A DNA stretch of 25,073 nucleotides from Granulicella sp. (GCA_027339965.1 DAHWNL010000041.1:1-25073); one strand, 5' to 3'; shown: positions 1 to 18,012, numbered from the stretch's first letter. Numbers and translations are program-made. The notes: a model not told the origin generated them from the letters alone.

Positions 1-215
1 AGACGGCTGATTTCCATCTGCTCGGCCGTCACCCCAGCCTTGCCGCTGACTTCCTTCAGCTTGCCTTCCCGCTTCGCCTTCACCCAGTTGGACAGGGTCT
101 GCTCCACCACTCCCAGACTGCGCGACGTCTCGGCAATGCTCGAGCCCGACTCCACCAGCCGCACCGCCTCCTGCTTAAACTCCAGCGTGTACCTGCCCCG
201 TTTTCCGTTCCTCAT
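1..215 (-). CDS. IS3-family transposase OrfA (partial; not in the supplied ORF track)
   Basis: ATG at 215 after GAAAGGGG. Translates MRNGKRGRYTLEFKQEAVRLVESGSSIAETSRSLGVVEQTLSNWVKAKREGKL...EQMEISRL, with the typical YTxEFKxEAVRLV / TLxNWV HTH signature. Confidence 0.9.
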   Translation of the reverse strand, partial: MRNGKRGRYTLEFKQEAVRLVESGSSIAETSRSLGVVEQTLSNWVKAKREGKLKEVSGKAGVTAEQMEISR

Positions 216-10546: not shown

Positions 10547-10669
10547 TTCTTCAGAATATCGAATCTTCCATCCTGACCCGAGCCATGAGCCCGGGAAATA
10601 CACCGCATGCAAACTCTTCCTTCTTCTCTGTTCCTGTCAGCCTCGGAGGAATCGCCGTACACTATTTCC

Positions 10670-11230
10670 ATGTCAAAACTCGAATCCATTCCGCTCCTCA
10701 CCATCGATGGAACTCCTACCTCGCTGGCCGCGTACTCTGGTAAGGTCCTGCTGATCGTCAACGTAGCCTCCAAGTGCGGCCTAACGCCGCAGTACACGGC
10801 TCTGGAGGCCGTCTACCAGCGTTACAAGGACCGCGGCTTCCAGGTCCTTGGCTTTCCAGCCAACGACTTCGCCGGCCAGGAGCCGGGGACCAACCAGGAG
10901 ATCGCCAAGTTCTGCTCCACGGAGTATCCCGTCACCTTTCCCCTGTTCTCCAAGATCGCCGTCACCGGTCCGGCCAAGCACGATCTGTACGCCGCCCTGA
11001 TCGCTGCGGCGCCCGAACACATCCCCCACGGCCCCTGGCGGGAGAAGCTCACCGGCTTTGCGGCGAAGAACGGCTTTCCTCCGCCCAACGAGCTTCCGGA
11101 GCTGCTCTGGAACTTTGAAAAGTTCCTCATCGGCCGTGACGGCAACGTCCTGGCCCGCTTTGCGCCGGACACACCTCCAGATGACATCAAAATCACATCG
11201 GCCATAGAAAAGGCGCTCGCCGCCTCGTAG
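10670..11230 (+). CDS. Glutathione peroxidase family (Cys-type, BtuE-like)
   Basis: NVASKCGLTPQY, LGFPANDFAGQEPG, WNFEKFL. Confidence 0.95.
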   Translation: MSKLESIPLLTIDGTPTSLAAYSGKVLLIVNVASKCGLTPQYTALEAVYQRYKDRGFQVLGFPANDFAGQEPGTNQEIAKFCSTEYPVTFPLFSKIAVTGPAKHDLYAALIAAAPEHIPHGPWREKLTGFAAKNGFPPPNELPELLWNFEKFLIGRDGNVLARFAPDTPPDDIKITSAIEKALAAS

Positions 11231-13698: not shown

Positions 13699-14496
13699 TC
13701 AGCGTAGATCCTCTTGCATCCGCACAGCGACTTCCTTCAGAAGAACAACATCGCCGGGCGTCGCCTTTCCACTCAAAAGCGGCTCCATGGTGCGTCCCAC
13801 CAGCAGCAGCAGCGGAGCTGGCCCACACGTCATTCCTTCCACGCGATCCAATCGCGCCGCTACCCAGCTCTGCCGCTCGGTCGCCGCATGGCTGATGGCG
13901 CAGCAGGCCACATCCCCAGCGACCCCCGCCTGGGAGAGATCCCATGCGATCCGTTCCAGATTGCGCCCGGGCATGTAAACCACCAGGGTTGCATCCTCCG
14001 GTAACGGGCCGCTCCAGATGGGCGCGACGTCCTTGCCATCCGCATGGTGGCCGGTGCAGAAGATCAGCTTGCTCGAGCTCGCTCTGTCCGTCAAAGGCAG
14101 TTGCAAGACCGCTCCCGCAGCCAGCGCAGCCGTAACCCCCGGTACCACCTCAAACCGCACTCCGGCTTTGCGCAGCGCCGCCATCTCTTCACCGGCTCGC
14201 CCAAAGACCAACGGGTCGCCGCTCTTCAGCCGAACCACGCTCTGTCCGGCGTGCGCCGACTCGATCAGCAGCGCATGAATCCCAGCCTGGGTGATGCGAG
14301 GGCGCCCGCAGCGCTTGCCTACACTGGTCACCAGAGCATGGCGCTGCGCCCTCGCCAGCACCTCCTCCGGCACAAGATCATCATGGAAGATGACGTCCGC
14401 GGTTTCCAGCAACCGCAGCGCGCGCAAGGTCAACAGCTCCGGATCTCCCGGTCCAGCGCCCACCAGGTACACCACTCCCTTTTCCGCAGCTGTCAT
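13699..14496 (-). CDS. cobA: Uroporphyrinogen-III C-methyltransferase
   Basis: VYLVGAGPGDPELLT, VRLKSGDPLVFGRAGEE, VPGVTA. ATG 14496 overlaps the upstream stop (ATGA). Confidence 0.95.
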   Translation of the reverse strand: MTAAEKGVVYLVGAGPGDPELLTLRALRLLETADVIFHDDLVPEEVLARAQRHALVTSVGKRCGRPRITQAGIHALLIESAHAGQSVVRLKSGDPLVFGRAGEEMAALRKAGVRFEVVPGVTAALAAGAVLQLPLTDRASSSKLIFCTGHHADGKDVAPIWSGPLPEDATLVVYMPGRNLERIAWDLSQAGVAGDVACCAISHAATERQSWVAARLDRVEGMTCGPAPLLLLVGRTMEPLLSGKATPGDVVLLKEVAVRMQEDLR

Positions 14497-15155
14497 GGCT
14501 CTGTCTCCTTTGGCGCCGCCTTGGACGCCGCCAACCCGTGCTCCACAGCATGCCGGCGAGCCCGGAGCCGGGATGGGCACTGCTCATAACCGCAGACTTC
14601 GCGCTGCGCCAACTCATGCAGGAACAGCCTGCGCTCCTCGCCCAGCGGCTCCGCGGCGGTGACCTCGCGCCGCAGCCATCCAAGTTCTTTCAACCAGTCT
14701 CCTGCGTCCGGCGGTAACGCCTCCTGGATCTCCCGGCGAAGCCGCTGCGCCAGGGCCGGGCTCTCTCCACCCGTGGAGATCGCAATCTGCAAATCGCCGC
14801 GCCGCACCACGCTGGGAAAGTAAAAGTCGCAGAACGGCGGGTCATCCACCGAATTGCACAGAACCCCCGCCGCGCTCGCTTCAGCGAACACCGCGCGATT
14901 CACCCCCGGCGTGGAGGTTCCCGCAACCACCAGAAATGCCCCGGCCAGATCCCCTGGGCGATACTCCCTCCGTTCCCAACGCAGATCCCCAGCCTCTGCC
15001 CACTCCCACACGCGCACGGTAGCCTCCGGCGCAATCACGGTGACCCTCGCATGGGCTGACAGTAAGCTCTCGATCTTGGCCGCAGCCACCGCTCCAGCCC
15101 CCACTACCACACAGGGCCGCGCCGTCAGTTTCAGAAAGATTGGGAATAGGCTCAT
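14493..15155 (-). CDS. Precorrin-2 dehydrogenase/sirohydrochlorin ferrochelatase (CysG N-terminal, SirC/Met8-like)
   Basis: LFPIFLKL, Rossmann-like VVGAGAVA, NSVDDP..CDFYFPSVV, IAISTGGESPALA. Confidence 0.92.
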   Translation of the reverse strand: MSLFPIFLKLTARPCVVVGAGAVAAAKIESLLSAHARVTVIAPEATVRVWEWAEAGDLRWERREYRPGDLAGAFLVVAGTSTPGVNRAVFAEASAAGVLCNSVDDPPFCDFYFPSVVRRGDLQIAISTGGESPALAQRLRREIQEALPPDAGDWLKELGWLRREVTAAEPLGEERRLFLHELAQREVCGYEQCPSRLRARRHAVEHGLAASKAAPKETEP

Positions 15156-15159
15156 AGTT

Positions 15160-16887
15160 TCACCCTACATTCGCGGGCACTGGTCCGGGCGCGAGATCCC
15201 GCTTCACCGCTTCGACTTCTGCCCCGGCCAGCAGCGCCCGCAACTCTTCATCAGTCTTGCGGCGAAAGAAAGCGCGCAGGTTCTCGTCCTCCTGGCGTTG
15301 ACTCAGATACCCTCGCAACAGCCGCTCAATGGCCTCAGGACAGTCCTGGGCGGCGGCGCGAAAGCCGATCTGTCGCGCAATGCCCGCATACTCCCCCACC
15401 GCCCCGCCGACACAGAAATAAAACGCATCGACCATCTGTCCATCCTGCTTCAACTTCTTTCCTTCCAGCCCGATATCGGCCAGCCAACTTTGCCCGCAAC
15501 TATTGGTGCAGCCCGTGACATGCAGTCGAATCTGCTGGTCGAACTCCGGCAGCCGCTCTTCCAGCTCCCCCACCAGCCACTGGTTGAATCGTTTGGTCTC
15601 AGCGATCGCCAGCTTGCAAAATTCGGTTCCCGTGCAGGCGACTGCTCCGCGATAGAAGACTGTGGGCTGCACCTCCAGACCAAGCGCCGCAATCTTGCCG
15701 ACAACCTCCGCGGTCCTGGCCCTGGCAAGATTCACCAGGACGATGTTCTGCCCAATGGTGGCGCGCAGGGATCCATCCCCATAAGCCTCGCTCAGGGCGG
15801 CCAGGCCATGGAGCTGCGCTGGGTTCAATCGCCCATTCAGTACCGTCACGCCGATGGAGTTCAGCCCCGGCTGCCGTTGCGGAACCACACCCACATGATC
15901 GCGGTAAATGTCCTGGGCGACGGCTCCCTCGGGGCAGGGTTCGAAACGGAAGCCGATCTTCTCTTCGATAGCCTCCAGCATCTGCTCGGACGTCCAGCCA
16001 TGCTTCAGGAAAAGGTACTTCAACCGCGCATGGGTGCGGCTCTGGCGCAGCACCTCTTGCTCGCGAAAGATCTCGCAGATGGCCCGCACAACCGCCAAAG
16101 CCTTTTCCTGTGGCACGAATGCGTTCAGGCGCACAGCCAGGTGCGGCTCAGTCGAGAGCCCTCCACCCACGCGCACACTGTATCCCACCTCTTCCTTGCC
16201 GTCCTTGACACGACTCAGGCCTGTCAAAGCTACATCGTTGATCTCTGGAAAGCTGCACCAGATTGGGCACCCCGTCACGCTGATCTTGAACTTGCGGGGC
16301 AGATTGTGAAACTCCCGATTGCCGGACAACATCCGCGATACCGCCAGGGCCAACGGCGAGGCATCCAGGAGTTCGTGCCGGTCCAGCCCTGCCAGCGGGC
16401 ATCCGGTCACGTTGCGGACGACATCGCCACAGGCACCCTTGGGGCTCAATCCGACGGTGCTGAGCGCATCCACCACCTCCGGCAGGGCTTGGATCGTCAG
16501 CCAGTGGAGCTGGATGTTCTGCCGCGTGGTGATATCCGCAACTCCGCGAGCATATCGCTGCGTGATGTCAGCGATGGCGTGCAGTTGCCGGGCGGTGAGC
16601 AGTCCATTCGGCAGGCCGATCCGCATCATGAAGTACTCCGTGGCCTTGCCTTGTCCGCCCGATCCTCCGGTCACTCCGGCGCCGTCGCCCTGGGTGTAGA
16701 TTCCCCACCCCTTGAAGTAGAACTCGGCCCACTCCGGCAGCACGCTCTCACGGCCCTCGCGAGCGAACCGGCGCACCTCGTCCCAGGCCTCCCAGGGATT
16801 CTTCTCCAGCTTTAGCCGCTCGGACCGCTGCGCCTTTGTCTCCTTGACCAACGCGTCTCCTGCGCCAGGCTTCACTGTCTCGCTCAA
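15160..16887 (-). CDS. Siroheme [4Fe-4S] nitrite/sulfite reductase (ferredoxin-type, probably a sulfite reductase)
   Basis: TTRQNIQ, LPRKFK, ACTGTEFC and TGCTNSCGQ cluster ligands. TTG start at 16887 after GAGAGGA (the track start is 16926). Confidence 0.93.
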   Translation of the reverse strand: MSETVKPGAGDALVKETKAQRSERLKLEKNPWEAWDEVRRFAREGRESVLPEWAEFYFKGWGIYTQGDGAGVTGGSGGQGKATEYFMMRIGLPNGLLTARQLHAIADITQRYARGVADITTRQNIQLHWLTIQALPEVVDALSTVGLSPKGACGDVVRNVTGCPLAGLDRHELLDASPLALAVSRMLSGNREFHNLPRKFKISVTGCPIWCSFPEINDVALTGLSRVKDGKEEVGYSVRVGGGLSTEPHLAVRLNAFVPQEKALAVVRAICEIFREQEVLRQSRTHARLKYLFLKHGWTSEQMLEAIEEKIGFRFEPCPEGAVAQDIYRDHVGVVPQRQPGLNSIGVTVLNGRLNPAQLHGLAALSEAYGDGSLRATIGQNIVLVNLARARTAEVVGKIAALGLEVQPTVFYRGAVACTGTEFCKLAIAETKRFNQWLVGELEERLPEFDQQIRLHVTGCTNSCGQSWLADIGLEGKKLKQDGQMVDAFYFCVGGAVGEYAGIARQIGFRAAAQDCPEAIERLLRGYLSQRQEDENLRAFFRRKTDEELRALLAGAEVEAVKRDLAPGPVPANVG

Positions 16888-16937
16888 TGTCCTCTCCAAT
16901 CTCGTTCCATCGTCCCAGCCGCACAAATCCGTTGCTG

Positions 16938-16973
16938 AAAAAACGAATGCCCACGATCAGCTTCGTGGGCACT
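16938..16973 (-). terminator. Intrinsic terminator in the 5' leader of the reductase operon (attenuator)
   Basis: Minus strand AGTGCCCACGA-agctga-TCGTGGGCATT followed by CGTTTTTT, about 50 nt before the reductase start. Confidence 0.85.
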
Positions 16974-17008
16974 TGAGGTAACTGGGGAATTTCTATCTGA
17001 TGCAGCAA

Positions 17009-17080
17009 TCAACCGCAGGCAGTATCCCAGACCCCAAGGTCAGGACACAGACAACAAGCCGGGATGTGCGTCAGGCTCAT
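17009..17080 (-). CDS. Putative Cys-rich leader peptide MSLTHIPACCLCPDLGVWDTACG
   Basis: 23 codons with 4 Cys (TGT TGT CTG TGT cluster), lying between a promoter and a terminator upstream of the reductase. Confidence 0.75.
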   Translation of the reverse strand: MSLTHIPACCLCPDLGVWDTACG

Positions 17081-17086
17081 GAACGT

Positions 17087-17115
17087 AGTCTATCGAGAAT
17101 CTCAGTTGATAGCAA
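17087..17115 (-). promoter_or_regulatory. Sigma70-type promoter of the reductase operon
   Basis: TTGCTA (17115-17110), 17-bp spacer, TAGACT (17092-17087). The predicted +1 falls on the leader ATG. Confidence 0.75.
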
Positions 17116-17139
17116 CTTTCTCCCACCAAAAAAGCACAA

Positions 17140-17940
17140 CTAAACTCCTATCTGTGACTCTGCCTCCTTGGCCGCCTCGTAGATCTGTTCGAAGCTTTCG
17201 ATGGCATACAACACCGGCTGCATCCGGGCGACGTCCACCTTCGTATCCATCACCTCCGCCAGCCGAAACTCTCTTATCTCCAGTCCTGCCGCTCGTTCGA
17301 CAACATGCGTGCACTCGCCATGCGAGGAGATCAATCCACTGCCGTAGACCTTGATCCTTCCTTCCTCATGAATCACCCCGAACTCCACCGTGAACCAGAA
17401 CAGCCTTCCCATTCGTTCGAGAGCCTGGGCGCTGTTCAAGCCGGCGCACACCCGGCCATACTCCTGTAGAAAATCGGCAAAAACAGGATGCGCATGCATC
17501 GGCACATGCCCAAACACATCATGGAAGATATCCGGCTCCGGGGTGTACTCCATGGAGTCGCGGCTGCGAATCCAGGTCGTGGTCGGGAAACGGCGGGCCG
17601 CCAGCATCTCAAAAAACGCATTCGAAGGCAGAAACCCGCTTACCGGCGTCGAGTTCCAGCCCGTCCGGGGCTCCAGCCGCGCGCTGACCTTGGCTAGATC
17701 CGGCAGTTGGTCCACCTGCAACCCGATCTGATCAAAGCCTTCCAGGTAGGTTCTTGATGCATACTCGTAGAGCTGGGGCAAACGGCGCGTCACCAGTTCA
17801 CTCCAGATGGCATGCTGCTCCGGCGTGTAGGCCGCCCAAACCTGCTCGATCAGATAAGGCTGCGCGGCTACCAACTCCATTGCGGTCGCCCGGCCGCGGT
17901 CTCTCCCGGTCTTCGCGGAACCCGCCATGGATGCAGCCAT
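17140..17940 (-). CDS. phhA: Phenylalanine 4-monooxygenase (biopterin-dependent aromatic amino acid hydroxylase)
   Basis: YTPEPDIFHDVFGHVP iron ligands, WFTVEFG, YGSGLISSHGE. GGAGG RBS. Confidence 0.93.
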   Translation of the reverse strand: MAASMAGSAKTGRDRGRATAMELVAAQPYLIEQVWAAYTPEQHAIWSELVTRRLPQLYEYASRTYLEGFDQIGLQVDQLPDLAKVSARLEPRTGWNSTPVSGFLPSNAFFEMLAARRFPTTTWIRSRDSMEYTPEPDIFHDVFGHVPMHAHPVFADFLQEYGRVCAGLNSAQALERMGRLFWFTVEFGVIHEEGRIKVYGSGLISSHGECTHVVERAAGLEIREFRLAEVMDTKVDVARMQPVLYAIESFEQIYEAAKEAESQIGV

Positions 17941-18012
17941 TGATTCCTCCCGCCAAGATCCTTCCGCGCTTCGCCTGTCATCGCCTGGCGCCCTAGGAGG
18001 ATCGCTGCAAGG

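Follow-up and report, generated by a model that had tools for sequence, protein, structure and literature searches.

A leader region that lies ahead of a siroheme-dependent reductase gene, in a 25,073-nucleotide stretch of DNA from Granulicella sp. (GCA_027339965.1 DAHWNL010000041.1:1-25073; the whole stretch is referred to as the window), combines a promoter, a short cysteine-rich open reading frame (ORF) and an intrinsic terminator. We consider it probable, at roughly 0.7, that this leader works as a ribosome-mediated transcription attenuator through which the sulfite reductase-siroheme operon responds to cysteine. Judged from the genome sequences, the leader most likely turns on sulfur assimilation at cysteine shortage in this soil acidobacterium and in about a hundred relatives. 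The element is on the minus strand, and leader nucleotides (nt) are numbered from the A of the ATG as nt 1, so that nt n corresponds to window position 17081-n. An earlier description of the locus from its sequence alone (hereafter the sequence-only reading) listed the promoter, the ATG, a 23-codon ORF with four cysteine codons, an 11-base-pair (bp) terminator ending in a U-run, and a long-range helix (13 bp), and all of these parts are present in the sequence and its predicted folds.

In the proposed mechanism, a 70S ribosome would translate the 23-codon leader from the start of the transcript. With plentiful Cys-tRNA, the terminator located 34 nt past the stop codon would end most transcripts. 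When charged tRNA-Cys is scarce, the ribosome would stall on the TGT-TGT-x-TGT cluster, the emerging transcript would fold without the terminator hairpin, and RNA polymerase would enter the reductase gene. The parts and their conservation are observed directly in the genomes; from them we infer the switch itself and its response to cysteine.

Upstream DNA of the orthologous reductase was taken from 24 same-genus genomes, 5 sister-family genomes and 80 named records. The closest reductases in the named records belong to Acidobacteriaceae and other Terriglobales (Tunturiibacter, Silvibacterium, Granulicella, Terracidiphilus and Candidatus Sulfotelmatobacter), with a few bins labelled otherwise. 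Cultured carriers of the leader include Tunturiibacter psychrotolerans X4BP1 (L041) and Silvibacterium bohemicum S15 (L049). One locus, L025, is cut off by a contig end; the counts take in L028 and L030, whose genomes are flagged as unpublished, and dropping both alters no conclusion. A short ORF with adjacent Cys codons was present 110-200 nt upstream of the reductase in nearly all collected loci. When the ORF was defined by a fixed rule (ATG or GTG start, 8-45 codons, two adjacent Cys codons (CC), within 260 nt upstream), it was found in 100 of 106 Terriglobales loci. The reverse complements gave 0/106, and 20 dinucleotide shuffles averaged 9.7, with 18 as the highest count. An ORF in the leaderless geometry described below was present in 21 of the 23 other same-genus loci with upstream DNA and in all five sister-family loci. 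Six loci (L043, L046, L058, L065, L097 and L110) carry the reductase with a Cys leader in bins that are labelled Gammaproteobacteria, Rhodanobacteraceae, Acetobacteraceae, Dormiibacterota or Eisenbacteria; these labels could reflect mis-binning or transfer.

The ATG (17080-17078) has no purine-rich Shine-Dalgarno (SD) sequence upstream, and the -10-like box ends 6 nt before it. A search for the promoter geometry TTGnnn-16..18-TAnnnT-5..8-RTG, made without reference to Cys codons, picked out a single site in 75 of 108 loci. Read from that site, the ORF contained CC in 71 of the 75 loci, and the shifted frames did so in 2 and 4. Because of this geometry, transcription is predicted to start at or adjacent to the ATG and the leader ORF to be leaderless. 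Predicted leaderless genes make up 9.7-19.4% across three Acidobacteria genomes, according to a published survey (PMC3160421). The conservation of adjacent Cys codons in aligned orthologous loci and the frame comparison thus give good comparative support to the proposal, made in the sequence-only reading, that a leaderless Cys-rich ORF followed by a terminator senses cysteine supply.

Cys occupies codons 9, 10 and 12 (all TGT) and codon 22 (TGC) of the window ORF, that is, four of 23 codons, compared with 1.04% Cys in the long ORFs of the genome. TGT accounts for 23% of Cys codons (1994/8567) in genome ORFs of at least 400 codons, versus 68% (273/400) in the leaders and three of the four in the window leader. 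The genome contains a single tRNA-Cys with the anticodon GCA, so that TGT would be read by wobble; use of this rare, wobble-read codon may sharpen the response. Across the order, the Cys codons alone persist, and the length and sequence of the peptide vary, from MTCCRCCMLLARQR-like to ...CCCTCCCCACVC...; the motif CCxCP is kept in clades I-III. Conserved Cys codons in an otherwise free peptide are the pattern of a sensor ORF and not of a functional peptide.

The terminator hairpin has 11 pairs, 6 of them G-C, a loop of 6 nt and the tail CGTTTTTT. The core 9-bp hairpin has a folding energy of -15.6 kcal/mol and the full hairpin one of -18.3 kcal/mol. A 6-bp stem core, CCCACG/CGTGGG, is shared without change by 22 of the 24 same-genus loci L001-L024 (the window's own locus, L001, included), with varying loop and flanks, and persists although reductase identity drops to ~70%. 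Slow compensatory change is the sole explanation that we can offer; loci of the hairpin alignment were partly chosen by the stem motif, so that stem invariance within that alignment is by construction. Of 88 loci with a predicted leaderless start, 83 have a hairpin followed by a U-tract, and 77 of these hairpins reach at least -10 kcal/mol in strength; in more distant relatives, different stems, again G+C-rich (GCCC...GGGC), precede the U-runs. The idea that the hairpin is a genome-wide repeat was rejected, as apart from this leader there is one unrelated match in the genome. In a metagenome scan with the hairpin, 11 among the 80 matches listed passed a filter for a T-rich tail and an upstream TGYTGY, and 10 of these were Sir-type leaders with a leaderless start.

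A second leader of the same kind is encoded in this genome (G000). A strict genome scan for leaderless CC short ORFs gave three candidates, two of which lie outside long ORFs: the present locus and one without a downstream gene. A relaxed scan gave 74 candidates; the DNA of 10 was inspected and the downstream genes of 4 were profile-scanned. Three of these four, situated before a decaheme cytochrome, a hydrogenase-4-like subunit and a polysaccharide exporter, did not show the architecture. The second leader, obtained from the relaxed scan, is rich in both Cys and Met, has the promoter geometry TTGCAT-18-CATACT-7-ATG and is followed by a strong terminator. The gene behind it encodes an O-acetylhomoserine/O-acetylserine sulfhydrylase (TIGR01326, 667 bits, cut-off 495). 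Five close relatives keep this leader, two with CC and the others with separated Cys codons in a Met-rich stretch. Its predicted folding is that of a classical attenuator: with a ribosome at Cys4/Cys5, UCGUGGGUGC pairs with the terminator arm, and with a ribosome at the stop codon this pairing is absent. This Cys/Met leader supports the view that the organism controls its sulfur amino acid genes through ribosomes reading leader codons. In locus L120 (G008:C51), the match to the O-acetylhomoserine sulfhydrylase holds one internal TGA and one internal TAG, which could indicate a broken gene or an assembly error.

How a stalled ribosome would prevent termination is less clear-cut in the window's own clade (L001-L005). 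The long-range helix formed by strand A (nt 43-55) and strand B (nt 95-109) comprises 13 bp with one G-U pair and a 2-nt bulge, and has an RNAduplex energy of -20.1 kcal/mol. In a comparison with 200 shuffles, the helix at this locus scored -16.6 against a mean of -8.5 (z -3.55, 0/200 as good); z ranged from -1.9 to -3.6 in L001-L005 and averaged a modest -1.03 across the 29 leaders with the same terminator, of which 6 reached p<=0.05. In 14 aligned leaders, 77.9% of the cells of helix A:B are paired, versus 27-45% for slid partners, and in every one of these leaders the helix runs at its 3' end directly up to the terminator. Three pairs carry changes in both partners, U-A to C-G in L004 being one instance; the covariation score is not above that of column shuffles, 269 of 500 of which reach it. 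RNAalifold, applied to the 14 leaders, did not predict helix A:B and instead paired columns 19-28 with 55-62 as another 5' helix; the local equivalent in L001, AUCCCGG paired with CUGGGAU (-10.1 kcal/mol), is not conserved in L002-L005. None of the listed metagenome matches that passed the filter comes from the window's clade, and those loci thus add no covariation for either disputed helix.

The sequence-only reading took helix A:B as the antiterminator, freed by stalling at the Cys codons. Spelled out, this wiring would have the helix left free by a ribosome held at Cys9/Cys10 and prevented by one translating on nt 43-57, and its formation would weaken termination by taking the lower stem of the terminator. 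The strength of the helix, its abutting position and the two-sided changes speak for this wiring, as do the relatives, where clade consensus folds show an A:B-like helix reaching GCC (clade III) or GUGCCC (clade II) of the terminator arm, 3-7 nt into the core; in L006 this reach lowers the terminator probability to 0.24. In the window's clade, which lacks the extension into the arm because GGC became GAC at nt 40-42, helix and stem have only A108 and G109 (16973-16972) in common, matching the overlap of about 2 nt noted earlier. The 9-bp core hairpin is untouched by the helix: the terminator is in the minimum free energy (MFE) fold in every ribosome-mask state folded, and the probability of the terminator core pair is 1.000 in L001-L005 with or without helix A:B and with a stall mask or none. 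The equilibrium terminator probability under ribosome masks was at least 0.96 in 27 of 29 loci, which makes that test uninformative. As drawn, helix A:B abuts the terminator and cannot block it by competition, since the core hairpin is untouched, and we regard its assignment as the antiterminator as rather less likely than not.

We tentatively favour, at somewhat less than even odds, a different wiring suggested by the nascent folds, in which helix A:B is a lock (an anti-antiterminator) that by default withholds nt 50-60 from the terminator. Pairing of nt 50-60 with nt 108-118 (AGUGCCCA(C)GA) would give 10 bp with two bulges at -10.2 kcal/mol and span the whole 5' arm. With nt 1-42 or fewer masked, helix A:B beats this pairing by 5.6-10.5 kcal/mol; with nt 1-47 masked, the nascent leader has this pairing as its MFE fold in L002-L005, four of the five members of the closest clade. 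A ribosome whose front edge is at ~nt 47, with its A site at Cys12 or Pro13, would thus melt the first half of helix A:B, and the freed nt 50-60 would pair with the whole 5' arm and block the terminator. A ribosome running to the stop codon would cover nt 55-84, about half of nt 50-60, so that the pairing could not form and termination would follow. In the alignment, the variants at nt 57-58 (UA, CG and CA) all still pair with G111 and U110, and in other clades GUGCCC is faced by the related motifs GGGUAC and GGGCAU, the latter recognized by reading the sequences. Leaders of other Terriglobales pair their last codons and stop codon with the terminator arm in textbook fashion in example folds, and their complementarity to the arm was above shuffles in 19 of 44 loci (p<=0.05, mean z -1.41). 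A small hairpin (nt 64-69 : 75-80) that holds the leader stop codon UGA in its loop may serve as a pause or timing element; similar hairpins enclosing the stop codon were seen in relatives of another clade when upstream sequences were read by eye.

Several observations weigh against the attenuator reading or its lock wiring, in addition to the unchanging core-pair probability given above. A promoter scan at a threshold of 9/12 listed no site here, because the two hexamers match at 8/12. A search for RNA runs over 16500-17400 gave none that covers the locus; the three runs listed share next to none of its sequence words. In-frame CC is missing from two same-genus loci: in L016, TGTTGT is out of frame with the ATG, and L021 has just two separated Cys codons. 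In the window itself, the nt 50-60 pairing is never the MFE and lies 1.2-3.0 kcal/mol above it with nt 1-47 masked, and the complementarity of nt 50-60 to the arm is not above chance (-8.7 versus -8.8 for shuffles, p 0.53). Similarly, complementarity between the free leader and the core 5' arm was not above shuffles in the 29 leaders with this terminator (mean z +0.18, 0/29 at p<=0.05). With usual footprint sizes, we estimate that a ribosome with Cys12 in its A site would extend no farther than ~nt 45-46. Were the ribosome to stall at Cys9 or Cys10, the lock would stay closed by 5.6-10.5 kcal/mol, which is awkward for a sensor. In a more speculative version, in our view unlikely, the lock would be melted only by a ribosome already beyond the first two Cys codons and halted at the third (in the conserved CCxC-P), freeing nt 50-60 to capture the terminator arm; the leader would then report where the ribosome stalls and act as a two-stage, possibly non-monotonic cysteine sensor that, with the Cys/Met leader, would form a ribosome-read sulfur amino acid regulon in Acidobacteriaceae.

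Explanations that dispense with transcription attenuation were weighed against the same data. The ORF might encode a small Cys-rich peptide that has its own function, for instance in metal or redox chemistry, or might be untranslated, with the terminator acting as a constitutive leaky insulator. In the closest clade the whole peptide is indeed conserved beyond its Cys codons (PDLGVWD(T/A)ACG). Order-wide, however, length and sequence vary freely around the adjacent Cys codons, the frame test stands at 71 versus 2 and 4, the rare TGT codon is enriched, and the ORF always lies between promoter and terminator ahead of a cysteine-pathway gene; we therefore judge this explanation improbable. Scarcely better odds, if anything slightly poorer, attach to the proposal that a regulatory protein or ligand binds the invariant hairpin GCCCACGA / UCGUGGGC and that the ORF is secondary. 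The identity of the 6-bp core amid varying loop and flanks, and the uniqueness of the hairpin to this leader within the genome, would fit such a site, but part of that invariance stems from the choice of loci by motif, the loop length ranges over 5-10 nt with no conserved unpaired nucleotides visible, and the GCCC...GGGC stems with U-runs of distant relatives are ordinary terminators too. Moreover, a scan of 16000-18000 against Rfam 15 at a permissive E-value gave two chance-level matches only (E 1.9 and 4.6), well under the gathering scores. Least probable of all, to a degree that we would hardly bet on, is translational attenuation of the mycobacterial type with an incidental terminator hairpin. 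The predicted leaderless poly-Cys design of the leader resembles that described for M. smegmatis Ms5788A (10.1101/834739); against this explanation stand a complementarity between Cys tract and ribosome-binding site (RBS) at chance level (mean z -0.05, 1/29 at p<=0.05) and the conserved hairpin and U-tract between ORF and RBS. Transcription attenuation governed by a ribosome reading Cys codons thus remains the reading that we prefer.

The gene controlled by the putative attenuator encodes a NirA/SirA-type reductase, as recognized from the NIR_SIR/NIR_SIR_ferr domain pair and the siroheme-synthesis operon (Table 1). Its start codon varies among TTG, GTG and ATG at this position in the relatives. 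The enzyme is probably a ferredoxin-sulfite reductase: among solved structures, M. tuberculosis NirA (1zj8, E 4.7e-84), which we take to be a sulfite reductase, is the closest full-length relative, followed by plant nitrite reductases (2e-66). The sequence-only reading had argued for sulfite, not nitrite, as the substrate; the Cys leader, circumstantially, and the siroheme genes agree with this, and the closest solved relative is consistent with it, but the NCBIfam equivalogs all score below cut-off (NirA family 382.7/523, nitrite reductase 359/594). On the other side of the leader, a biopterin-dependent aromatic amino acid hydroxylase (phenylalanine-hydroxylase-like) ends at 17140. This neighbour is kept in only 15 of 109 loci, and hence the leader module travels with the reductase and not with the upstream gene. 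No cysH, cysD/N, cysK or other sulfate-assimilation gene was seen among the window ORFs scanned. Elsewhere in the window, on the plus strand, are a class-V aminotransferase of the cysteine-desulfurase-like fold family and a glutathione peroxidase.

Table 1. Positions of the leader elements, the second leader and the genes discussed (window coordinates unless stated otherwise).
Feature	Position	Strand	Basis or remark
-35-like hexamer TTGCTA	17115-17110	minus	sequence reading; TTGnnn at same spacing in relatives
-10-like hexamer TAGACT	17092-17087	minus	17 nt past the -35; 6 nt (ACGTTC) ahead of the ATG
Leader ORF MSLTHIPACCLCPDLGVWDTACG, 23 codons + TGA	17009-17080	minus	sequence reading and comparative tests
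Putative sensor codons TGT TGT CTG TGT (Cys9, Cys10, Leu11, Cys12), then Pro13	17045-17056	minus	TGTTGT conserved in alignments
Helix 5' strand (A), nt 43-55	17026-17038	minus	RNAduplex, shuffle test
Candidate antiterminator strand AT2, nt 50-60 (UCUGGGAUACU)	17021-17031	minus	duplex and nascent folds
Small hairpin, nt 64-69 : 75-80, stop codon in loop	17001-17017	minus	MFE folds
Helix 3' strand (B), nt 95-109, abutting terminator	16972-16986	minus	RNAduplex, shuffle test
Intrinsic terminator hairpin, core GCCCACGA / UCGUGGGC, nt 108-135	16946-16973	minus	terminator scan
U-run (T6), nt 138-143, preceded by CG	16938-16943	minus	sequence reading and terminator scan
RBS of reductase, GGAGAGG	16897-16891	minus	sequence reading
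NirA/SirA-type siroheme [4Fe-4S] reductase, TTG start at 16887	15160-16887	minus	Pfam NIR_SIR + NIR_SIR_ferr
Siroheme synthase N-terminal-type protein (precorrin-2 dehydrogenase / ferrochelatase)	14493-15155	minus	Pfam; TIGR01470 167 bits, cut-off 62.3
Uroporphyrinogen-III C-methyltransferase	13699-14580	minus	Pfam TP_methylase; NF004790 257.6 bits, cut-off 198
Glutathione peroxidase	10607-11230	plus	
Class-V aminotransferase	390-1571	plus	
Second leader ORF MVFCCTNVARMHVDMSMCRRSWVRAGTV, Cys- and Met-rich	G000:C25:27612-27698 (L111 1443-1529), outside window	minus	relaxed scan

Classical leader-peptide attenuators are those of the trp, his, leu, thr, ilv and pheA operons of E. coli and Salmonella. 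Like them, the present leader has a short ORF rich in codons for the end product, with its stop codon upstream of an intrinsic terminator that precedes the first structural gene, and relatives of this locus show clear terminator/antiterminator alternatives. Unlike them, it would sense cysteine, its ORF is apparently leaderless rather than SD-led, and the strongest alternative helix in this clade does not share the terminator arm. Canestrari et al. (10.1101/834739) state that attenuation for cysteine mediated by an upstream ORF (uORF) had not previously been described, and the mechanism shown there is translational. The mycobacterial polycysteine leaderless short ORFs of that study resemble the present one in having at least two consecutive Cys codons upstream of cysteine-pathway genes and in lying at the transcript start, as predicted here; with its second leader, this genome also recalls the idea of a regulon put forward for them. 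The characterised mycobacterial case works by SD sequestration at the level of translation, without a terminator and through pairing of the Cys tract with the SD region, whereas here an intrinsic terminator is conserved, complementarity of the Cys tract to the RBS does not exceed chance, and the phylum differs.

Leaders closer in design have been predicted elsewhere. The uORFC-8-2 motif of Brewer et al. 2021 (PMC8632094) is described as a predicted ribosome-mediated attenuator with a terminator upstream of cysS in Rhodobacterales, and shares two tandem Cys codons and the terminator with our leader. It differs in the regulated gene and the lineage, in having its Cys codons inside the first stem and in the dominance of UGC, where TGT prevails here; no sequence relation between the two was found, as judged by the lack of an Rfam match. 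Seliverstov et al. 2005 (PMC1262725) predicted Cys leader peptides before cys operons of Actinobacteria; these likewise are short ORFs with Cys-codon runs ahead of cysteine genes, but the study reports no terminators for them and suggests Rho dependence. Our literature search, which had most subscription journals outside its reach, found no description of such a leader in Acidobacteria, in agreement with the sequence-only reading. The principle is textbook, and its occurrence before a sulfite reductase in this lineage is new as far as that search shows.

Acidobacteriota are abundant soil bacteria, and to our knowledge their gene regulation is almost unstudied. The leader offers a concrete, testable regulatory element for sulfur assimilation, recurring before the sulfite reductase in about a hundred Terriglobales genomes, and would assign a substrate (sulfite, not nitrite) to a NirA-type reductase beyond the reach of family models. 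Its relatives form a natural variant series, from classical antiterminators to an abutting helix, for studying the evolution of attenuator wiring. If the reading is right, leaderless Cys-sensing short ORFs would extend beyond Actinobacteria and would here be coupled to an intrinsic terminator.

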